A stretch of 64,000 nt of DNA from Candidatus Nomurabacteria bacterium (GCA_023267215.1 JAHFNS010000002.1:128892-192891); one strand, 5' to 3'; shown: positions 13,188 to 58,759, counted from the first letter of the stretch. Numbers and translations: made by a program. Notes: generated by a model from the letters alone, not told the origin.

Positions 13188-13382
13188 TTATCTTTTCTTA
13201 ATTATTGGCACACCTAGATCTTCACAAATCTTTTTTCCTATATGAGTGTTAATTTCATTATGCCTAGGAATAGTAGATGTCCTACCTGTAAAAGTATTAC
13301 ACCAAACACTATGAGAACCACCTTCCCTCAGAAAAACACACCCATATTTACGAATGTGTTTTATAAGATCAATTTGCTTCAT
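13188..13382 (-). CDS. hicA: HicA-family toxin (mRNA interferase)
   Basis: 64 aa: KELIKxLxKxGxxFxRxGGSH..TIPRHxEIN pattern typical of HicA/YcfA. Confidence 0.75.
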   Translation of the reverse strand: MKQIDLIKHIRKYGCVFLREGGSHSVWCNTFTGRTSTIPRHNEINTHIGKKICEDLGVPIIKKR

Positions 13383-13388
13383 AAGAAA

Positions 13389-13616
13389 TTAAGCACAAAC
13401 AGCAAGATTTTCTCGTGTAATAATAGATCGTCCTTCAGATTTTTTTGATAAAAGACGATTACTTTCAAGTATAAGCAAAAGTGCTTCTTTTAGATTTCTT
13501 TTGGTTTCAGACAAAGTTTTACCTTGAGTATTGACCCCTGGAATTTCCTCTATCCAGCCAGAATACCATTTGCCAGATTTTTTATATAAAGCTGTAAATT
13601 GTCGTGATTGTTTCAT
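13389..13616 (-). CDS. hicB: HicB-family antitoxin (short form)
   Basis: 75 aa with a WYSGWIEEIPGVNTQGKTLSE..L.EAL core resembling the HicB N-terminal domain; 6 nt upstream of hicA. Confidence 0.65.
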   Translation of the reverse strand: MKQSRQFTALYKKSGKWYSGWIEEIPGVNTQGKTLSETKRNLKEALLLILESNRLLSKKSEGRSIITRENLAVCA

Positions 13617-13655: not shown

Positions 13656-14648
13656 CTATTTCCTCGTTGCAATGATAGTGCCTGTTATATTATGTCCTTT
13701 ACAATGAGAAAGAACTCCTAAATAAGAATCTATTGATCCTTTTGATAAATTTTCCTTCGCTTTTCGTAATAACCTTTTTTTAGTACTAGTGCGTAAAACT
13801 CTATAATGTGGAAGAATAACATAACCAAGAAAATCTATTCCTTGAGATAATTTTCTAATTTCAACCTTTCTGGGGTGTAATTTTAATTCGAGTTCTGTTT
13901 TTAAAAATTCAAAAATTTTAGGAATGATGGATTCAAGAAATTTTTTTTCCTGAGAAACAATTACAAAATCATCACAATAACGAACATAATATTTTATTTT
14001 CAATTTATGTTTAATATATTGATCAAAAATATTCATATAGACATTAGCAAAAAGTTGGCTTGTCACATTGCCGAGGGGTAATCCTTTCCCTTTAGTTTTT
14101 TCAAAACTTTTTATAATATTATTTAATAACCATTTTGTTTCTGGACATTTAATTTTTGAAAAAAGAATATCTTTTAAAATTTCATGATCTATCGAATCAA
14201 AAAATTTTGAAATATCACACTTCAAAACCCAAACATTGCGAGTATAGTTTTGTGTTTCTTTTCGTAAAAATCTTTCTAATTGATTAACTCCCGAGTGAGT
14301 TCCTTTATTAAATCGACAAGCATATGAATCATATATAAAAGATGAGTCAAAGACCTTATAAAGTTGGCGAAAAATAGCTTGATGCACTACCCTGTCCCGC
14401 ACTTCTGCTTTGTGAATATGTCTGCGTTTTGGGTCATAAACGTAAAATGGTACATACGGTTCATTTATATATGTTTTTCGTCGAAGAGAAAAGTGAATGT
14501 CTAAAATATTTTTTTCTAAATTAAACTCAAATTTTTGTATATCTGGTTTTTTATTTTTTCCACACCGAAATTCTCGCCAAGCGGAAAGAAGATTGGAAGT
14601 TGAAATTATATGATAGAATAAATCACTATGAGTACCCCCCCCCAACAT
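13656..14648 (-). CDS. Diversity-generating retroelement reverse transcriptase
   Basis: RT motifs 2-5 (RDRVVHQAI; LKCDISKFFDSIDHEIL; GLPLGNVTSQLFANVYMN, i.e. the DGR-type [LIV]GxxxSQ; YVRYCDDFVIV). No maturase/endonuclease domains. Cognate TR/VR pair sits 400-900 bp upstream. Confidence 0.85.
   Translation of the reverse strand: MLGGGTHSDLFYHIISTSNLLSAWREFRCGKNKKPDIQKFEFNLEKNILDIHFSLRRKTYINEPYVPFYVYDPKRRHIHKAEVRDRVVHQAIFRQLYKVFDSSFIYDSYACRFNKGTHSGVNQLERFLRKETQNYTRNVWVLKCDISKFFDSIDHEILKDILFSKIKCPETKWLLNNIIKSFEKTKGKGLPLGNVTSQLFANVYMNIFDQYIKHKLKIKYYVRYCDDFVIVSQEKKFLESIIPKIFEFLKTELELKLHPRKVEIRKLSQGIDFLGYVILPHYRVLRTSTKKRLLRKAKENLSKGSIDSYLGVLSHCKGHNITGTIIATRK
14635..14643 (-). repeat. G9 homopolymeric tract (C9 on + strand) in codons 3-5 of the RT gene
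   Basis: ATG TTG GGG GGG GGT (M L G G G); the only G/C run of 7 or more in the window. Candidate slipped-strand phase-variation switch. Confidence 0.6.
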
Positions 14649-14727
14649 CTCCAGTAATATTATTGAGCTCCCCGTTATCCTCCATATAAAGAGATTATAT
14701 AAAATAATATATCAATTAGAAACAAAA

Positions 14728-15015
14728 ATGCCGAAACAAAATAAACTCGGCATTCATAAAAAAGTAGAAGAATATGTTCTACGAATTTTAACTCTTTTGA
14801 TAGATTCTGCACTTCGAAGTAAACAAGACAAAATACAGACCCTAAATCAAGCACGTCGAGATATTGAAGTACTAAAACATCTTATTCGTTTAGAATATGA
14901 ACTTAATATAATAAAAGAAAAACAATATATTATTCTCGCACAAATACTTGAAAAAATATCTATGATGACAACAGGTTGGATAAAATCTTTTGGAACACAA
15001 AAGCCCTTATATTGA
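14728..15015 (+). CDS. Putative Avd-like accessory variability determinant (four-helix-bundle family)
   Basis: 95 aa. The C-terminal half (IEVLKHLIRLEYELNIIKEKQYIILAQILEKISMMTTGWIKSF) resembles the four-helix-bundle Avd family. It lies between TR and RT but on the opposite strand, and the SD is weak, so the call is uncertain. Confidence 0.4.
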   Translation: MPKQNKLGIHKKVEEYVLRILTLLIDSALRSKQDKIQTLNQARRDIEVLKHLIRLEYELNIIKEKQYIILAQILEKISMMTTGWIKSFGTQKPLY

Positions 15016-15027
15016 AGGGCTTTTGCC
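15001..15027. promoter_or_regulatory. Perfect 8-bp stem hairpin immediately 3' of the TR
   Basis: AAGCCCTT-ATATTG-AAGGGCTT followed by TTTTG; overlaps the stop of the Avd-like ORF. Could be a bidirectional terminator and/or the TR-flanking structure used for cDNA priming. Confidence 0.45.
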
Positions 15028-15037
15028 TAGAAACTTC

Positions 15038-15148
15038 TGACGGAGGCCGTTGTCGGGATTACGGTTATCACGATTGTCGTTGCTCACGTTGAACTGACCA
15101 TCGTTATTGCGGTTCATGTTCATGGCATTGCCATCCGAATCAAGGGCC
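15038..15148 (-). repeat. DGR template repeat (TR)
   Basis: 111 nt matching VR 15407..15517 except at 11 positions. All 11 are TR adenines (coding strand). Encodes Asn-rich NAMNMNRNNDGQFNVSNDNRDNRNPDNGLRQ; invariant by inference. Confidence 0.8.
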
Positions 15149-15342
15149 CTTTCTGTGAGAGTCCATCCATACCACCACATGTCTTTAAAAAAAACATATT
15201 GAGTTGTTCCGGCTCTAAAGCCGTCTCTGTTTGGAATCTTTATATTCCCTAGACTCCCACAGGCAGTTTCTATATTATGGCAAACTGTCATCCATTTTAA
15301 AATGGATCAGCTTAACAGCCAAATTATTTATATCATAAAAAA

Positions 15343-15365
15343 AGTCCTCAACATAGTTGAGGACT
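15343..15365 (-). terminator. Strong hairpin and T7 run downstream of the DGR target gene
   Basis: AGTCCTCAAC-ATAG-GTTGAGGACT (10-bp stem); on the minus strand followed by TTTTTTT. Confidence 0.55.
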
Positions 15366-15367
15366 TA

Positions 15368-15389
15368 GGTAACAAGTTAAAAAGTTACC
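15368..15389 (-). promoter_or_regulatory. Small hairpin abutting the 3' end of VR
   Basis: GGTAAC-N10-GTTACC, 4 nt after the target stop codon; position matches the VR-flanking hairpin needed for homing in characterised DGRs. Confidence 0.35.
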
Positions 15390-15393
15390 AGTT

Positions 15394-16146
15394 TTAGAAA
15401 TCTACTTGACGGAGGCCGTGGTCGGGATAACGGTAATCACGATAGTCGTAGCTCACGTCGAACTGACCATCGTTATTGCGGCTCATGCTCATGGCACCGC
15501 CAACCGAATCAAGGGCCGCAAAACGAGTAAGCCCTTTGACGTCGTACATTTTATTAGTTTCAGTACGATATCGGAAAGCAGAGATAATACCTTCTTTTGG
15601 AATCATGAATTTTATATTTTCATTAATTCCATCATCATAACTTTTGTTAAGCAAATCCGGTTCATCCCCACCGACATGACATGTTGCGTAATCACTCGTG
15701 GGACGTACCTGCTGTTCCTTAATGGATTCGGCAATGTTGTCATAATATTTCCAAACCGCATTATTGCCAAATTTTTTTGCATAGGCTTCAAAATATTGAT
15801 CTTCAGTAATATCAGTAAAGATATATTCCAGCCGTTTCATTTTTTCGTTCCATGCAGGAAGCACTATTTTTGACCAATCAATAGTACGACTGAAGAATTT
15901 TTTGTAAAAAACTTCAATTCGTCTTTTTTCTTCAATCCATGGGTCAATTTCAATTCCAAAAATTTCTTTGCAAAAATTTTCGGTAAGTTTTTCAACTTCA
16001 TGATCTGGACTTAAAACAAAGTGATTGGCACTTTCAAATGAAAGCTTTCCACTATCTCCCAAAACACGAGTGATTGTTCCGGCAATTTTAAAGCCGATTG
16101 CAACTAACTGACCTGAGGTGGCAGGTGTAATAACTTGATTTGTCAT
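15394..16146 (-). CDS. DGR variable target protein (C-terminal VR, probable C-type-lectin-like fold)
   Basis: 250 aa. The last 37 residues (GAMSMSRNNDGQFDVSYDYRDYRYPDHGLRQVDF) are encoded by VR; Tyr/Ser/His/Asp replace the TR Asn codons. No signal peptide seen. Confidence 0.8.
   Translation of the reverse strand: MTNQVITPATSGQLVAIGFKIAGTITRVLGDSGKLSFESANHFVLSPDHEVEKLTENFCKEIFGIEIDPWIEEKRRIEVFYKKFFSRTIDWSKIVLPAWNEKMKRLEYIFTDITEDQYFEAYAKKFGNNAVWKYYDNIAESIKEQQVRPTSDYATCHVGGDEPDLLNKSYDDGINENIKFMIPKEGIISAFRYRTETNKMYDVKGLTRFAALDSVGGAMSMSRNNDGQFDVSYDYRDYRYPDHGLRQVDF
15407..15517 (-). repeat. DGR variable repeat (VR)
   Basis: See TR. The 3' (IMH-like) end is GC-rich: CGGCCTCCGTCA. Confidence 0.8.
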
Positions 16147-16255: not shown

Positions 16256-18409
16256 TTATTTACGAGACGAGATTATTACTTCAGCCACGTTTTGTGGGAC
16301 TATGTCATAACGTAAAAATTCCATAGTGAAAGATGCACGTCCTTCAGTCATTGAACGAAGACCTGTCATGTATCCGAACATTTCAGAAAGAGGAACAACG
16401 GCACGAAGCGCTTTATTCATTCCGCGATCTTCCATACCTTCAATAATTCCACGCTTGGAAGAAAGATTACCTGTGATGTCTCCCATGAATTTTTCTGGAG
16501 TAACGACTTCCACTTTCATCATTGGTTCAAGAATAACTGGTTTTGCGCGCTTACAAGCATCTTGTACAGCCATAGAAGCTGCGATTTTAAAAGCCATTTC
16601 ATTGGAGTCCACTTCATGGAAAGAACCATCCCAAAGTTCAACAGAAACATTAACCATTTTGAATCCCGCAAGTACTCCGCGATCAAGACCTTCTTTAAAT
16701 CCTTTTTCGCAGGGAGCAATATATTCTTGTGGAATAGCACCTCCTTTAATCGTATTTATAAATTCAAAACCATTCGCTCTTTTTGTATTTTTTGGTAAAT
16801 CTTCCACTTCTTCTTTTGTAAGAGGCGTCATTGGTTTAACTTTAATTTTAACGTGACCGTAGTTTCCACGTCCACCAGATTGTTTTATGTATTTACCTTC
16901 TGCATCTGCATTATTGGTAATGGTCTCACGGTAAGCCACTTGTGGTTTACCTACATTAGCTTCAACAGTAAATTCTCTTTTCATGCGGTCTACAATAATT
17001 TCCAGATGAAGTTCTCCCATTCCAGCAATAATTGTCTCCCCTGTTTCTTGATCAGTACTAACTCGGAAAGTAGGATCTTCTTGTGCGAGACGATTGAGTG
17101 CCATACCCATTTTTTCTTGGTCTGCTTTTGTCTTTGGTTCAATACGAAGTTGAATAACAGGCTCAGGGAAAATTATTCTATCTAACTCAATTGGGTGTTC
17201 TTCGTCACAAATAGTATCAGAAGTGATAGTGTCTTTAAGTCCAACAGCCGCCGCGATTTCTCCAGCAAAAACTTTTTTCATTTCTTCTCGGTCATTCGCA
17301 TGCATACGAAGTATTCGTCCTATACGTTCTTTGTTGCGAGTACGAGGATTATAGATATAAGAACCAGCGGAAAGAGTTCCGGAATAAACTCTAAAGAAAA
17401 TAAGTTGCCCAACAAACGGATCCGTGGCAACCTTAAAGGCTAAAGCAGAAAAAGGCTCTTCGTCCGAAGCATGTCTCATAATAGGTTCATCATTATTGTC
17501 TGGATCTGTCCCCCCAATAGGTGGAATATCAAGCGGAGAAGGAAGATAGTCTACAACACCGTCGAGCACTAGCTGAACTCCTTTATTTTTTAAAGCGGAT
17601 CCAGCATAAACTGGGAAAATTTCATTAGCGATAACTCCTTTTCTTAAAAGTTTTTTCAAAACAACAGCATCAGGAATTTTTCCTTCGAAATAATCATTCA
17701 TGACAGCATCATCTTGTTCTACAATCTTTTCAATAAGTTCATGATGATATTTTTCTGCATCTGCCTTCATATCTTCTGGAATCTCTTTTTCGATAACTTT
17801 ATTACCCATTTCTCCCTCAAAGTAATAAGCTTTCATTGTGAATAAGTCCACAACACCTTCATGTTTTTCTTCAAGACCAATAGGAATTTGCATGCGAACA
17901 GCTTTCTTGGTTAGACGATCTAAAATAGTTGCATATGAATGTTCAAAAGATGCACCTATTCTGTCTAATTTATTTATAAAACAAATACGAGGAACTTTCG
18001 CTTCATCAGCATAACGCCAGTTTGTTTCTGATTGAGGTTCAACTCCAGCCACTCCGTCAAAAACAACAACAGCGCCGTCTAGTACACGAAGAGATCTTTT
18101 CACTTCTACGGTAAAATCTATGTGCCCAGGTGTATCAATAATATTAAAACGGTGTTTTTTACTTTTGTCTGTTGGGGAAGCATAAGTAGGCGTCCAGAAA
18201 CAAGTGACAGCAGCAGAAGTGATAGTGATACCTCTTTCTCTTTCTTGTTCCATCCAGTCTGTGGTAGTCTCTCCATCATGAACCTCTCCTATTTTATGAG
18301 AAACGCCAGTATAAAAAAGCACACGTTCTGTCGTAGTTGTTTTACCAGCATCGATGTGTGCAATAATTCCAATATTTCTAACTTTTTCTAGTGGATAGTC
18401 TCGTTCCAT
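16256..18409 (-). CDS. fusA: Elongation factor G
   Basis: 717 aa; [24 protein letters not shown] and EF-G domains IV/V. Confidence 0.95.
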
Positions 18410-18418
18410 ATATTTATA

Positions 18419-18889
18419 TTACCAAGCGAAATGAGCAAAAGCCTTGTTGGCTTCAGCCATCTTGTGAGTATCTTCTCTTTTCTTGATAGCAGAACCTTCA
18501 TTCTTAGAAGCAGCAATAAGCTCGTCAGCAAGTTTTAAGTGCATTTCACGTCCTTTACCTTTACGAGCAGCATCACGAATCCATCTCATAGCTAGAGCGA
18601 GTCTTCTTTCAGGACGTACTTCTCTTGGCACCTGGTAGTTCGCACCACCAATACGCTTTGAACGAACTTCTGTAAGTGGTCCTGCATTTTTCATTGCTAA
18701 GTCGAAAATCTCAAGAGGATTTGGATTGCCTGTTTTTTCTTTTATAACATCAAAAGCTTTATATACTATCTTTCTTGAAGTTTCTTTTTTACCAGACCAC
18801 ATAACGTAGTTGATAAATTTCTCCAATTTTTGAGAATTATAATTGAAATCTGGCTTAACTATATTTCGATTGTTTATTTTACGTCGCAT
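18419..18889 (-). CDS. rpsG: 30S ribosomal protein S7
   Basis: 156 aa; S7 signature region (RRLALAMRWIRDAAR, AHFAW C-terminus). Confidence 0.9.
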   Translation of the reverse strand: MRRKINNRNIVKPDFNYNSQKLEKFINYVMWSGKKETSRKIVYKAFDVIKEKTGNPNPLEIFDLAMKNAGPLTEVRSKRIGGANYQVPREVRPERRLALAMRWIRDAARKGKGREMHLKLADELIAASKNEGSAIKKREDTHKMAEANKAFAHFAW

Positions 18890-18894
18890 AATTT

Positions 18895-19317
18895 TTATTT
18901 TTTAACTACTTTTGGTCTCTTGTTTCCATAAAGAGATCTACCTTGTCTCCTCTTCTCAACTCCTTGAGTATCGAGTACTCCTCGAACAATGTGATATCTT
19001 ACTCCAATCAAGTCTTTCACACGTCCCCCACGAAGCATCACAACAGAGTGTTCTTGTAGGTTGTGTCCTTCACCAGGGATATAAGCTGTCACTTCCATGC
19101 CATTGGTTAAACGAACTCTAGCAATCTTTCGGAGAGCAGAGTTTGGTTTTTTAGGAGTAGTAGTCGAAACTTTTGTACAGACACCTCTTTTAAAGGGTGC
19201 AGGAAAAAACACTGGTCTATTTTTCAAAACATTAAATCCTCGCGCCAAAGCAACCGTTTTTGACTTGGCTTTGGTTTTAACTCTATTCTTTTTAATTAAT
19301 TGATTTACTGTTGGCAT
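18895..19317 (-). CDS. rpsL: 30S ribosomal protein S12
   Basis: [20 protein letters not shown] core. The ORF-track start at 19338 adds 7 spurious residues; the true start is probably the MPTVNQ Met. Confidence 0.9.
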
Positions 19318-19371
19318 AATTAAACAAAATAGCCCCATAGGACTATTAGAAATAATATACTATTAAAAAAT

Positions 19372-54906: not shown

Positions 54907-55641
54907 GTGAAAAAAATAATTATTTTTCTTGTTGTCCTATTGGGGACAACTTTAGCCCAAAAAGAATCACTGGAAACAAAAATGTTTTTCCCAACGAGAG
55001 AAGCAGCGGAAAAAGCATTTTATTCGGGTGATTTCCGATATTATTTATCGGACCCTAAAAACATAAAAAGCTATCCACCATTTTCTGCAAAAGGTCTTCC
55101 AAGATCTTATGTAGTTCTGGAGGTTGTTAGAGAAAATTCTGGAAAGTCGCCTGCATGGGTATTACTCGCCCCAGGTACACCATCAGTATTTAATTTCCAC
55201 GGAGTACCAATTCAAGATGGACGGTGTTGGAATAAAATTCTTGAAGCTTATCCCGTTCTACTTAATGGACGAGATGGTAAGGACGGAATTAATGGAAAAG
55301 ATGGACAAAATGGTAAAGATGGACCTCCTGGGAAAGATGGAGAAATAGTAATCATTCCATCAGAAGACAATACTCCTTCCAACTGGACAATTTGGAAAAC
55401 TCTTACCACTGGAGGAGCAGGAATTGGAGGATATTTTATTGGTCATAATAATTTTAAAAAAACGATCACTAATATAACAAGAATTCCACCGGTCGCAGTA
55501 CAAACCGGCAACGGGACAATAATCTATGGTCCTGAACGTGTAAATGTTAGTACTAGTAATGAATTTAATGAACCTATAGCAATAATGTGTGGTTTATTAA
55601 GTGCAGGAGTTACTTTCCTGCTAAATTGGTTCGTGTTTTAA
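54907..55641 (+). CDS. Collagen-like (GXY)9 repeat protein with signal peptide and C-terminal hydrophobic anchor
   Basis: GRDGKDGINGKDGQNGKDGPPGKDGE run of GXY triplets. N-terminal signal peptide; C-terminal TM. Confidence 0.6.
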   Translation: MKKIIIFLVVLLGTTLAQKESLETKMFFPTREAAEKAFYSGDFRYYLSDPKNIKSYPPFSAKGLPRSYVVLEVVRENSGKSPAWVLLAPGTPSVFNFHGVPIQDGRCWNKILEAYPVLLNGRDGKDGINGKDGQNGKDGPPGKDGEIVIIPSEDNTPSNWTIWKTLTTGGAGIGGYFIGHNNFKKTITNITRIPPVAVQTGNGTIIYGPERVNVSTSNEFNEPIAIMCGLLSAGVTFLLNWFVF

Positions 55642-55777
55642 ATCATTTAGTGTGGAGGTTTTATTCTTTTTTAAGATTAACTCTTCCACAGCTTTTCAAA
55701 GTTATTGATATTTTTAGATAAATGTGGATAATTTTGAAGAGCTAAAAAACTCTTTTAAAATAGTAATAATAAAAATT

Positions 55778-58759
55778 ATGAATAAAAAAATAAAACTGAC
55801 AATATTAGGTATCTTAACTCTCGTTGGGCTTTTTACTAGTATAAATATAACTTCTGCTGGTAGAACTCCAATAGTTACTTGCAACAGTGCTACTATTTAT
55901 GGAACTGTCTGGCCAAACAATACTACAGTGAGTGCTTGGTTTGAATGGGGAAATAACATATCAACAGTTCAAAATGGAGGTGGAACTAAAATTGGATTTC
56001 AACAAGTTAATAATACCACTGAACTCAGTGCAAATTTGTCAGGACTAAATCAAAATACAACTTATTATTACAGATTGGTTGTTCAAAGTGGTAGTGATTA
56101 CATTCCTGCCACAACCGAATCCTTTTCTACTACTACTTGCCAAATTGTAAACCCTCCCGTCAATGGTGGCTGGAGTGACTGGAGTTCAAAAGATAATTCT
56201 TGTGGTGTTTCCGGAGTTCAAACTCGCTCTTGTACAAACCCTACTCCAGCTAATGGTGGAGCATATTGTTCCGGTCCTTCTACTCAAACATATACAAATC
56301 CACAATGTCCTATTATAAATACTCCCGTCAATGGAGGATGGAGTGACTGGAGTTCAAAAGATAATTCCTGTGGTATTTCCGGAGTTCAAACTCGTAGTTG
56401 TAATAACCCAACTCCAGCTTACGGAGGAGCATATTGCTCAGGCCCTTCTTATCAATCATATACAAATCCAGTATGTCCTAATTTAATTTTACCTCCTGTT
56501 GTTTCATTAACAGCAACTCCGACATCAGTATCTTACGGTGGTTCTTCTACTTTATCTTGGAACTCAACAAACAATCCATCATGTATCGCCAATGGTGGTT
56601 GGTCAGGGCAAAAAGCAATGAGGGGCAATGAGTCAACTGGCGCTTTGAATTTCAATACTACTTATAATATTACATGTACAAACAGTGCAGGCTCAGACAG
56701 TAAATCAGTCACAGTGAGTGTTTTACAACAACCGGTTATTCAAAATCCAAGTGGAACAATCTATGCCTCTTCTTGTTTTATACAACTTAATCAATCTACT
56801 TGTGAATCAAAAGTTTCTTGGAATACTTATAATTTAACTCCCGGAGCCTTGACAGCTGTCACCAGAAGCAATCCACCCGTAACAGTATTTACCACGACAT
56901 CCGGAAATAATTTAAGTGATTATATAAATTATGGAAACAGTATTTATTTCTTATATCACAATCAGCAACAGTTGGCATCCGCCCCAGTAAATGCCTCTTG
57001 TGTCTCTGGCACTACTTATATTGGAGGTATTTGTATAGCTCCTGTTGTAAATTATCCTGTAAATGGTGGTTGGGGACCTTGGAGTTCTAAAGATAATTCT
57101 TGTGGAGCGTCTGGAATCCAAATCCGTAGTTGTAATAATCCTAGCCCAGCAAATGGTGGACTAGATTGTTCTGGTTTATCTTCTCAATCATATACAAATC
57201 CGGCTTGTCCTATTACCCAAACTCCCGTCAACGGTGGTTGGGGAGCTTGGAGTTCTAAAGATAATTCTTGTGGTATTTCCGGAGTTCAAACTCGTAGTTG
57301 TAATAATCCTTATCCAGCAAATGGCGGACTAGATTGTTTAGGTACCTCTTCTCGAACTTATACAAATCCACAATGCCCTATCACTCAAACTCCCGTAAAC
57401 GGTGGTTGGGGAGCTTGGAGTACAAAAGATAATTCTTGTGGAGCTTCTGGGATTCAAACTCGTAGTTGTAATAATCCTAGTCCATCAAATGGTGGGCTAG
57501 ATTGTTCAGGAGCTTCTACTCAAACATACGTAAATCCTCAATGTTCTTATCCTGTTTACACTTGCCAAGATTATTCCGCTACAAATTATGGAGGTTCTTT
57601 ACCTTGTAATTATTATCAAGCTCCTTTAGTTTGCCAAGATCCAAGTGCTACCAACTACAGAGGTGGTTTACCTTGTAATTATTACAATAATTATATTCAA
57701 ACCTGCCAGGATCCTTCTGCAACAAATTATCGTGGGACATTGCCTTGTAATTATTATTACCAACCTATTTTAACTTGCCAAGATCCTTCTGCCTTAAATT
57801 ACAGAGGAACACTTCCTTGCACGTATAATACATATATTAACAATAAACCAACTGTAAATATTTCTACAGATCAAAGTACTGTATCCTTTAATGGAACTAC
57901 TTTTGTTCGTTGGTATACAACCAATGCAACCTCTTGTTATGCAAGTGATGGATCTATCGGTTGGGCAGGAGCAAAAAGCATTGGACCAGGAAGTTTTTAC
58001 ACAGGATCATTAACTTCTGGTAAAACTTACACTATTACTTGTACAAACAGTTTTGGGTCTGCGACTGATAGCACAAATGTATCTGTTCGTTCTCAAACCA
58101 CAACAACAATCACAACCAGACGTGCTCCAACTTCTCTCGTACTTATTACCTCTTCTGTAGATCGTAATCAACCAATAGTGCCTACCATAGACAATACTAG
58201 ACCAAAACCAGGAGATGAAATCAATTACACCGTAAATTATCAAAATATCGGCACAGGATCTATCACTAGTCTCAATCTAAGAGTAGACCTCCCTTACGAA
58301 GTAAATTACATATTGTCTAATCCAAACAATCCAACCATTTCTGGTAATACTTTAATTTTCAATTTAGGAACCCTAAAAGCAAACGGACAAGGCACGGTGA
58401 CAATAAGAGTGCGAGTACGAGAAAACATACCAGCCGGAACAAATTTAAATTTCCCTGCTACTTTGAGTTATGTTGACCCAGGAGGTCAACCACAATCAGT
58501 AATGGCTAATGTCTCTGCTCAAGTTTGGAGTGAACCACCAATAACACAACTGGTAAATCCAAACGACAAAGAAACAGTACAATTAGGAGCACTCGCTTTC
58601 CTGTTTGGTAACAGTTTTGTTCCAAGCACACTAATAGGATGGCTTCTTATTATTCTATTAATTACTCTGGTTGTTTTAGCCGTAAGAAAAGCGTACTACG
58701 GACCAAATGCAATTTTTGTTCCACAAACTTTAGAAAAAAGTAAAAAAATAAATGGATAA
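55778..58759 (+). CDS. Large surface protein with 5 thrombospondin type-1-like repeats, Cys-rich 24-aa repeats, Ig-like domains, a DUF11-like domain and a C-terminal TM anchor
   Basis: Five repeats of VNGGW(S/G)xWSSKDNSCG.SG.QTRSCNNP.PANGG..CSG.S.Q.YTNP.CP (WSxWS and CS.TCG-like core). Four repeats of CQDPSATNYRG.LPCNYY. DUF11-like segment (INYTVNYQNIGTGS...GTVTIRVRV). The start is probably the Met at 55778. Confidence 0.7.
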   Translation: MNKKIKLTILGILTLVGLFTSINITSAGRTPIVTCNSATIYGTVWPNNTTVSAWFEWGNNISTVQNGGGTKIGFQQVNNTTELSANLSGLNQNTTYYYRLVVQSGSDYIPATTESFSTTTCQIVNPPVNGGWSDWSSKDNSCGVSGVQTRSCTNPTPANGGAYCSGPSTQTYTNPQCPIINTPVNGGWSDWSSKDNSCGISGVQTRSCNNPTPAYGGAYCSGPSYQSYTNPVCPNLILPPVVSLTATPTSVSYGGSSTLSWNSTNNPSCIANGGWSGQKAMRGNESTGALNFNTTYNITCTNSAGSDSKSVTVSVLQQPVIQNPSGTIYASSCFIQLNQSTCESKVSWNTYNLTPGALTAVTRSNPPVTVFTTTSGNNLSDYINYGNSIYFLYHNQQQLASAPVNASCVSGTTYIGGICIAPVVNYPVNGGWGPWSSKDNSCGASGIQIRSCNNPSPANGGLDCSGLSSQSYTNPACPITQTPVNGGWGAWSSKDNSCGISGVQTRSCNNPYPANGGLDCLGTSSRTYTNPQCPITQTPVNGGWGAWSTKDNSCGASGIQTRSCNNPSPSNGGLDCSGASTQTYVNPQCSYPVYTCQDYSATNYGGSLPCNYYQAPLVCQDPSATNYRGGLPCNYYNNYIQTCQDPSATNYRGTLPCNYYYQPILTCQDPSALNYRGTLPCTYNTYINNKPTVNISTDQSTVSFNGTTFVRWYTTNATSCYASDGSIGWAGAKSIGPGSFYTGSLTSGKTYTITCTNSFGSATDSTNVSVRSQTTTTITTRRAPTSLVLITSSVDRNQPIVPTIDNTRPKPGDEINYTVNYQNIGTGSITSLNLRVDLPYEVNYILSNPNNPTISGNTLIFNLGTLKANGQGTVTIRVRVRENIPAGTNLNFPATLSYVDPGGQPQSVMANVSAQVWSEPPITQLVNPNDKETVQLGALAFLFGNSFVPSTLIGWLLIILLITLVVLAVRKAYYGPNAIFVPQTLEKSKKING

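Follow-up and report, generated by a model that had tools for sequence, protein, structure and literature searches.

The closest described counterparts of the locus analysed here, positions 13656-16146 of a 64,000-nucleotide stretch of DNA from Candidatus Nomurabacteria bacterium (GCA_023267215.1 JAHFNS010000002.1:128892-192891; hereafter the window, with the strand as presented taken as plus), are the diversity-generating retroelement (DGR) of the Bordetella phage BPP-1 and the DGRs of the Patescibacteria, or candidate phyla radiation (CPR). The phage element has the order mtd-avd-TR-brt, where TR is the template repeat, avd the accessory variability determinant and brt the gene for the reverse transcriptase (RT), bRT. 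According to Handa et al. (bioRxiv 10.1101/2023.10.23.563531), the phage DGR RNA opens with the upstream strand of the cPRT Stop duplex, followed by TR, whose 3' end is paired with spacer (Sp) nucleotides Sp47-56 (primer A56); it continues with the Avd-binding stem-loop, the primer strand, 2 nt and the Stop strand Sp59-70, and ends with a short stem-loop, A-minor adenosines, the Thumb Ring and the bRT-binding stem-loop. For the CPR bacteria, Wu et al. (2018; PMC5758913) described an architecture B3, TR-(avd)-RT, which accounted for 90% of their CPR DGR set, and remarked that CPR DGRs can include genes for ribosomal proteins; Roux et al. (2021; PMC8144416) delineated a DGR clade 2 that is restricted to Patescibacteria and has targets without transmembrane segments or known domains. 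Weinberg et al. (2017; PMC5737381) reported the RT-associated RNA motifs RT-1 to RT-19, of which RT-10 is the BPP-1 spacer. Our results indicate that positions 13656-16146 are very probably a complete chromosomal DGR of the Patescibacteria lineage with the B3 architecture, because the differences between TR and the variable repeat (VR) are specific to adenines, the RT resembles bRT, Avd is conserved and the target has a predicted C-type-lectin fold.

TR (15038..15148, minus strand) and VR (15407..15517, minus strand), the latter encoding ALDSVGGAMSMSRNNDGQFDVSYDYRDYRYPDHGLR near the C-terminus of the target protein, are identical at 100 of 111 positions, and a repeat finder returned the pair as its top family (D1), collinear direct repeats 369 nt apart. 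The mismatches lie at plus-strand positions 15051, 15060, 15066, 15075, 15081, 15090, 15113, 15119, 15128, 15129 and 15134, and all 11 are a T in TR on the plus strand, that is, an A on the coding (minus) strand; from TR to VR the substitutions read T>G,A,A,A,A,C,C,C,C,C,A on the plus strand, with no non-A difference in the 111 nt. Given that 33 of the 111 bases of TR are A, 11 randomly placed mismatches would be confined to A with a probability of 4e-7. Every one of the 33 adenines occupies codon position 1 or 2, there are 11 AAY codons, and the GC content of TR is 51% versus 33% for the window as a whole. No further VR-like copy was found in the 64-kb window. The same pattern recurs in 10 related loci, which show 14-24 TR/VR differences at adenine sites per locus and few non-A differences, nearly all of them outside the repeat core. 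Two related loci (L003 at 4133 and L008 at 6642) share the same non-adenine T-to-G difference, located in a GGT codon just ahead of the mutated adenines. In a further locus, L030 (3386-3470), the stretch following the leader described below is 100% identical to the locus's own VR and lacks the A-rich TR, and the contig stops 85 nt into the repeat; overwriting of TR by cDNA was considered and is the less likely reading, since the contig ends inside the repeat and an assembly collapse is more probable.

Both repeats share the GC-rich end GGCCTCCGTCA, and identity stops at ...CGTCA. Past this point VR runs into AGTAGATTTCTAA, the end of the target open reading frame (ORF), and TR runs into GAAGTTTCTAGGC. 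The 3' boundary of VR (15394..15418, minus strand) is thus unlike the TR flank, 28 nt separate VR from a hairpin, and the alignment shows the same boundary arrangement in 10 relatives. By analogy with the Bordetella phage, the two ends suggest a pair of putative initiation of mutagenic homing (IMH) and IMH*-like sites, with an inverted repeat after the IMH. The original prediction had described the repeat pair with its adenine-only mismatches and the IMH-like repeat ends; a script alignment and the repeat finder reproduced the former base for base, and the shared end followed by diverging flanks bears out the latter. A 94-aa ORF that covers TR (15007-15291) is open in the window only and was rejected as a gene, its reading frame being broken by stops or frameshifts in 10 of 10 relatives.

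The RT gene (13656..14648, minus strand) encodes 330 aa that consist of the RT domain only, with the motif 4 sequence LGNVTSQ and the catalytic YCDD. Pfam returned RVT_1 alone (E 1.7e-26) and no maturase or endonuclease domain. Its closest solved relative is the cryo-EM structure of bRT (8ub7), to which residues 4-319 align with residues 2-306 at E 2.7e-50; for group II intron and retron RTs the E-values are no better than 3e-18. More than 7,500 RT homologs were found at E <= 1e-30, and those with a named source are all from Patescibacteria/CPR or from a plain 'bacterium'. A DGR-type RT free of maturase and endonuclease domains had been proposed from the motif, and the domain and structure comparisons agree with it.

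Between TR and the RT gene lies avd (14728..15015, plus strand; 95 aa), on the strand opposite to both. The protein matches Pfam bAvd (E 4.7e-9, 37.1 bits; the match begins at profile position 21) and NCBIfam DivGenRetAVD (E 2.1e-11, 44 bits), and bAvd was matched by 12 of 12 members of the clade, the best at E 1.7e-11. The alignment of these 12 sequences holds 28 invariant residues, which, with the bAvd matches in all members, argues that avd is a real gene. In every RT-bearing relative whose avd-RT region was scanned, avd occupies the same inverted position with 46-84% amino-acid identity. On this comparison of sequences, avd is a genuine conserved gene, convergent with TR and divergent from RT. 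The Avd-like ORF of the original prediction therefore gains from two family matches and a conserved position, and its orientation, which had been called unusual, is the norm for the lineage. A single-sequence AlphaFold2 (AF2) model of Avd came out as one long helix and was not used.

The target gene (15394..16146, minus strand) encodes 250 aa, predicted to comprise an N-terminal helical region and a C-terminal C-type-lectin-fold domain. Neither a signal peptide nor a transmembrane segment is evident in this protein, and it has no Pfam match. Its 72 homologs, all of those with a source name being from Patescibacteria, align as a conserved body followed by a hypervariable tail, ALDSxGxAMxMxRxxxGxFxVxxxxRxxRxxxxGLRQVxF. 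The AF2 model built on the homolog alignment (pLDDT 91.7) predicts that the C-terminal half is a C-type-lectin/formylglycine-generating-enzyme (FGE) fold with VR at the C-terminal end of that domain, in line with the earlier proposal of a lectin-type target with a C-terminal VR. A Foldseek search of the model against PDB and BFVD gave nothing significant, the best matches being animal C-type-lectin-like domains at E ~0.4. The exact target protein was found on two contigs only, both with the same VR.

On the minus strand, the locus therefore reads: target with VR, terminator, a DGR RNA gene (leader, TR and hairpin), avd reversed, and RT. We identified relatives by scanning one genome per species with the target alignment, which yielded 23 loci, all from metagenome-assembled genomes (MAGs) of Patescibacteria (Nomurabacteria, Paceibacteria and similar) bar one labelled 'bacterium'. 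RT is present in 10 of the 23, all of which are arranged as target(+), TR(+), avd(-), RT(+) and have an Avd of 48-84% protein identity; further loci from metagenomes and look-up have the identical gene order. Of the 11 metagenome matches to the leader motif, three (L027-L029) were chance matches. The window DGR shares with the CPR B3 DGRs its host lineage, its gene order, its reversed avd, a small target without a recognisable domain or membrane anchor, an AAY-rich TR and the placement of a chromosomal cassette beside housekeeping genes, here directly after rpsL-rpsG-fusA. It is thus a typical member of the CPR B3 kind from which nothing differs at the level of architecture, and as a DGR it adds one example to a class that is already abundant in candidate-phyla bacteria. 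What was not found in the CPR DGR literature examined is a covarying leader 5' of TR, a terminator-like hairpin shared with avd and a G-run at the start of RT.

When the stretch from the end of VR to avd was aligned in 11 loci, a fixed series of elements emerged: a motif in the 3' untranslated region (3'-UTR) of the target gene, a terminator hairpin with its T-run, a TATAAT-like box, ~175 nt of conserved sequence, TR, the invariant CGTCAGAAGTTTCT and a stable hairpin. The 3'-UTR motif TAACTTTTTAACTTGT, also found as TAACTTTT(T)AACTTGT, lies at 15372..15387 (minus strand), between the target stop codon and the terminator, and is conserved in sequence in relatives; it may be a target-site or a 3'-UTR signal. 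A terminator scan placed an intrinsic-terminator-like hairpin with a T-run at 15335..15366 (minus strand), where it ends the target gene. Hairpin and T-run are found at the same place in all relatives with differing stem sequences, and the hairpin may double as the one downstream of the IMH. Three hairpins had been predicted to flank the repeats, and their fates differ: the one at 15343-15365 corresponds to the terminator-like structure on the minus strand, and that at 15001-15027 is kept as a structure in 20 loci, whereas the one at 15368-15389 does form in the window but relatives conserve a sequence motif there and not a hairpin. The box at 15327..15332 (minus strand) reads TATAAA in the window and TATAAT or TATACT in relatives, with invariant TATA columns, and as a predicted -10 box it would serve as the template RNA's own promoter.

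The conserved sequence directly 5' of TR is a non-coding leader of ~175 nt (15149..15323, minus strand). Since the 94-aa frame is broken in the ten relatives, the conservation upstream of TR is not protein-coding, and the comparisons point to RNA structure instead. RNAalifold predicted a 5' hairpin P1 (15279-15320), a 12-bp long-range helix P2 (15251-15262 paired with 15153-15164) that encloses P3 to P5, and a helix between a heptamer of the leader and the TR 3' flank. The enclosed elements are the stem-loop P3 (15233-15248), the A-rich AAACAGAGA with its conserved AAACA (15224-15232), and the hairpins P4 (15210-15223) and P5 (15177-15199); the single-stranded UAGAAACU (15265-15272), complementary to the TR 3' flank, precedes P2, and all of these lie on the minus strand. 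On an 18-sequence MAFFT alignment, the five-helix model has 87.3% of cells paired versus 34-50% when slid by 1-3 columns, 24 pairs changed on both sides and a covariation score of 0.393 versus at most 0.167 for the slid controls; none of 500 shuffles reached the observed values. P2 is 94% paired, with 8-9 pairs that show double changes, and its 3' strand ends 4 nt before TR. Conserved G.U pairs (e.g. column pairs 13/46 and 79/203) indicate that the structured strand is the TR strand.

A covariance model, R1, built from the same alignment matches the leader in 30 loci (25 distinct ones, then 5 more), of which 12 are outside the seed, those among the first 25 being L010, L011, L013, L014, L022, L035 and L037. 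All matches fall either immediately after a target homolog or in the interval that separates a target-sized gene from avd/RT, and where TR is present they are always 5' of it. The model-fitted alignment gives 91.6% of cells paired and double changes in 38 of 45 pairs, figures that lean towards the model to which the sequences were fitted. Folded alone, the window leader reproduces P1-P5 (z = -5.15), and in the minimum free energy (MFE) fold of the window RNA with TR and tail the UAGAAACU:AGUUUCUA helix and the 3' hairpin also form (z = -5.66). A structured leader RNA is therefore highly likely to exist. It does not correspond to a known RNA family in Rfam, where no family matched at the gathering score or at E up to 10 and this identification was dropped, and a scan of viral contigs with the leader motif gave chance matches only. 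The RT-1 to RT-19 motifs are likewise structured RNAs beside bacterial RT genes, at least one of them part of a DGR, but the leader differs from them in lying upstream of TR, in being separated from RT by avd and in having no Rfam match. Two natural variants, one without P3 and P4 (L034, 5882-6036) and one with a ~20-nt insertion in the P1 loop (L024, 3425-3620), would be useful for defining which helices are dispensable.

Downstream of TR there are ~10 nt, one hairpin and a U-rich tail, after which the antisense avd coding sequence begins. The 3' flank GAAGUUUCUA (15028..15037, minus strand) is IMH*-like, and its AGUUUCU is complementary to AGAAACU of the leader, which makes it a candidate template strand of a template:primer-like duplex. 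This helix is invariant in most loci and is joined to P2 by a 2-nt (GC) linker; L037 has one compensatory change in it, from C-G to U-A. The hairpin that follows (14997..15026), flanked by an A-run and a U-run, covers the last codons and the stop of avd. In 20 loci it has a stem of 12-18 bp, a folding energy of -14 to -25 kcal/mol, differing apical sequences and a start 0-3 nt after ...TTTCT. Its form makes it a candidate terminator in both directions, for the TR RNA and for avd, which converge on it, and, by analogy with the stem-loops that Handa et al. observed just downstream of TR in 207 DGRs, a candidate Avd-binding stem-loop.

The window RNA thus consists, in its 5' part, of P1, UAGAAACU, 2 nt (GC), the 12-nt 5' strand of P2, P3, AAACA, P4 and P5, and in its 3' part, of the P2 3' strand, 4 nt, TR, AGUUUCU and the hairpin. 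If the ends of the phage RNA are joined and the circle is cut between the Avd stem-loop and the primer strand, the order obtained is that of the window. We consider it an evenly balanced possibility that the window DGR RNA represents the Bordetella DGR RNA in circularly permuted form and works through this topology. In such a scheme, UAGAAACU in the leader would pair with AGUUUCUA in the TR 3' flank as the counterpart of the template:primer duplex, followed by the 2-nt linker; P2, of 12 bp and with a 3' strand that ends 4 nt before TR, would stand for the cPRT Stop duplex; P3 and the subsequent AAACA would represent the short stem-loop and the A-minor adenosines; P4 and P5 would make the contacts with RT; and the 3' hairpin would be the Avd-binding stem-loop.

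The likeness to BPP-1 extends from the proteins to the RNA. Both systems have an RT that can be aligned over its full length, an Avd partner, adenine-specific TR-to-VR differences, a target of the C-type-lectin fold (predicted for the window) with a C-terminal VR, and a GC-rich IMH-like VR end followed by a hairpin; both also have a stem-loop directly 3' of TR and a duplex of ~12 bp with one strand a few nt 5' of TR, from which a 2-nt linker leads to a short duplex, a candidate only in the window, at the TR 3' end, and after which come a small stem-loop and unpaired adenosines. They differ in that the partner strand of P2 is upstream and not downstream of TR in the window, that avd is on the other strand between TR and RT, that the 140-nt spacer which the phage has 3' of TR is missing, the structured RNA proposed as its equivalent being 5' of TR, and that the window RNA has an extra 5' hairpin, P1. 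In addition, the TR RNA, avd and RT of the window seem to be transcribed as three independent units, the element resides in a bacterial chromosome and not in a phage, and its target is something other than a tail fibre. The spacer position of the phage is impossible in B3 elements because avd sits there on the other strand. A distant B3 DGR, L039, with an RT 56% identical, a different target and no R1 match, has the same layout as the window (terminator, TATACT box, a leader of ~250 nt, TR and avd reversed), and in its MFE fold a leader strand is paired with the TR 3' flank beside a 14-bp helix whose 3' strand abuts TR. The survey of Handa et al. took in 40 nt on the 5' side of TR and 100 nt on its 3' side, so that an upstream partner 90-150 nt away would have gone unseen.

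From these elements we propose a mechanism in which a separate RNA of ~330 nt would be transcribed from its own promoter, from ~15322 to ~14990, and end at the hairpin shared with the convergent avd. RT and Avd would bind this RNA, RT would copy TR into cDNA with misincorporation opposite the 33 adenines, and the cDNA would replace VR, guided by the GC-rich IMH-like end, so that as many as 22 codons could be rewritten in the surface with which a soluble lectin-fold protein binds its ligand. If the permuted topology holds, the geometry of the ribonucleoprotein seen by cryo-EM would be conserved and the connectivity of its RNA would not, and the compact, self-contained template RNA would be useful for reconstitution and engineering; it would also provide a testable RNA model for the commonest CPR DGR architecture.

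A further feature concerns the production of RT. Codons 2-5 of the RT ORF contain a homopolymeric G9 run (14635..14643, minus strand; C9 on the plus strand), the sole G/C run of at least 7 nt in the 64-kb window, where runs of at least 9 are expected 0.017 times and GGG accounts for 11% of Gly codons. Of 25 related loci, 24 have a run of G7-G12 at this position; the remaining one, L026, has GGT GGA GGT instead. Upstream of RT, the conserved avd-RT intergenic region (14649..14727) holds a TATAAT (14693-14698, minus strand) 8 nt before a conserved ATG (14682-14684, minus strand) that opens M-x-N/D-N-R-x-L-N, an arrangement which suggests a promoter with a leaderless-type start. Relative to the RT body, this ATG is in frame in 7 of the 25 loci (including the run-less L026), offset by 1 in 14 (including the window) and offset by 2 in 4; it is hence out of frame in 18 of 25. 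Four loci have no canonical in-frame RT start, and of 120 RT calls in databases, about 19 lack part of the N-terminus. The window RT also has a proximal in-frame ATG-TTG, and its 330-aa ORF is intact. The sequence pattern hints at a slippage-prone tract that gates RT production, through what may be DNA phase variation, transcriptional slippage or ribosomal frameshifting, or may be plain use of the proximal start. The frame bias was discarded as proof of programmed +1 frameshifting, as the chi-square P of ~0.04 comes from 25 non-independent loci and is unconvincing. A literature search for poly-G or phase variation in DGRs gave nothing relevant. Candidate-phyla cells often lack mismatch repair, and for such cells the homopolymer at the beginning of RT could be an uncomplicated means of turning a mutator on and off. 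A joint reading, which we offer only tentatively, is that an extensive clade of Patescibacteria DGRs (perhaps B3 elements at large) uses a permuted RNA of ~330 nt together with an RT gated by slippage at G7-G12, which would make hypermutation stochastic and switchable. We treat both the proposed permutation of the RNA and the G-run as leads: the RNA structure is well supported, and what we make of it mechanistically is inference.

Several observations weigh against the picture of a complete, active DGR with a permuted RNA. The matches of Avd fall under the curated cut-offs (37.1 versus 40 bits for bAvd, 44 versus 80 for DivGenRetAVD), and the solved bAvd was not recovered in PDB either by the single Avd sequence or by the 12-sequence profile. 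The promoter scan lists candidates that overlap 15327-15332, but their number is not above chance. The helix between leader and TR flank has an internal A.C mismatch in L013 and L034 and a terminal mismatch in L031, and it is otherwise so nearly invariant that covariation speaks neither for nor against it. Read-through into the antisense of avd could supply a conventional 3' spacer, the slippage-prone G9 at the RT start bears on the claim of activity, and parts of the picture may already be contained in Paul et al. 2017, which is outside the literature examined.

Among the explanations that compete with a DGR, an RT from another retroelement (a retron, a group II intron or an Abi/DRT defence system) beside a 111-nt repeat that is an ordinary duplication would account for the top NCBIfam score of the RT, which is to a group II intron RT/maturase model (143.5 bits), and for the annotation of RT homologs as 'retron-type' or 'RT/maturase' in public sources. 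The RT fold and motifs are indeed common to all these enzymes, and with retrons the window element would also share cis-priming from an RNA 2'-OH, as proposed here. However, the score is far under the model's cut-off of 300, the element has no maturase or endonuclease domain, intron RNA domains or msr/msd, the RT carries GxxxSQ and is much closer to bRT (E 2.7e-50) than to group II RTs (3e-18), and the mismatches are confined to adenines (P ~4e-7), a pattern that 10 relatives repeat; we regard this alternative as extremely improbable. Hardly more credible is that the Avd-like ORF is fortuitous and that 14728-15015 is a structured spacer RNA read on the minus strand, an option that had been left standing beside a divergent avd in the original prediction. 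The ORF is short, begins at position 21 of the bAvd profile and scores just below the Pfam cut-off, but its frame has stayed open at the same length and position with 46-84% identity and 28 invariant residues despite the divergence of the DNA, all 12 tested members match bAvd, and a terminator-like hairpin separates it from TR.

For the leader, the alternative to a role in reverse transcription is that it lies outside this machinery, as a remnant of a duplicated target 3' region, a transcriptional or translational regulatory leader or an independent neighbouring small RNA. In two loci the stretch upstream of TR has weak protein-level similarity to the target upstream of VR (tblastn q191-247). 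Yet compensatory changes keep the five helices, which is unexpected of a pseudogene remnant; in every case only a few nt separate the end of the P2 3' strand from TR, and the linker is complementary to the TR 3' flank; the leader is found in this DGR context alone; and the sequence-unrelated leader of L039 has the same topology, all of which makes a part in the machinery preferable and the alternative unlikely. A comparable low probability attaches to the view that the DGR is decayed or silent, with TR/VR differences that record past activity and RT production that is, for example, off. Decay is common among relatives: L009/L032, L010, L011, L014 and L022 keep target and leader without avd and RT, L009/L032 even retaining TR, and L010 a TR-like sequence, despite the loss of RT. 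In the window, moreover, the conserved upstream ATG and the RT body, on either side of the G9 run, are in different frames, and four relatives have no canonical in-frame RT start. Against this, the 330-aa RT ORF has YCDD and a proximal in-frame ATG, avd is complete, TR has all 33 A and no stop codons, and neutral drift after inactivation should have added non-A differences, of which there are none in 111 nt. Because of this absence of non-A differences and the intact genes, the window DGR is probably active or was recently so.

Among the relatives, decay of the DGR with retention of the target gene appears frequent. L009 (identical to L032) has a leader, TR and an avd fragment after the target homolog and no RT; in L011, TR is cut off after ~12 nt; and L014 and L022 have lost the 3' part of the leader. 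L009 and L010 are from the same MAG. Two other loci have another member of the target family beyond RT (L025, 5286-6053; L026, 5018-5764) and are possibly two-target DGRs. The family of 250-aa soluble lectin-fold targets could help to ask what cells with reduced genomes diversify.

In the window, the cassette lies 109 nt downstream of fusA, after rpsL-rpsG (16256-19338), and the cassettes of relatives adjoin unrelated housekeeping genes (racemase, RF-1, uvrC, DHFR/thyA); the differing neighbours indicate that the cassette has been moved or shuffled. Directly after the RT gene, on the minus strand, are a HicA toxin gene (13188-13382) and a HicB/UPF0150-like antitoxin gene (13389-13616), together spanning 13188-13616. 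Elsewhere in the window, a 1011-aa ORF (55724-58759) contains 168-nt tandem repeats (56154-57543) that match thrombospondin type 1 repeats, plus a DUF11 domain, and the ORF before it (54907-55641) has a weak match to collagen-like repeats (E 6.4e-4, below the Pfam cut-off). Such thrombospondin- and collagen-like repeats are unusual, eukaryote-like adhesion repeats for a CPR genome.

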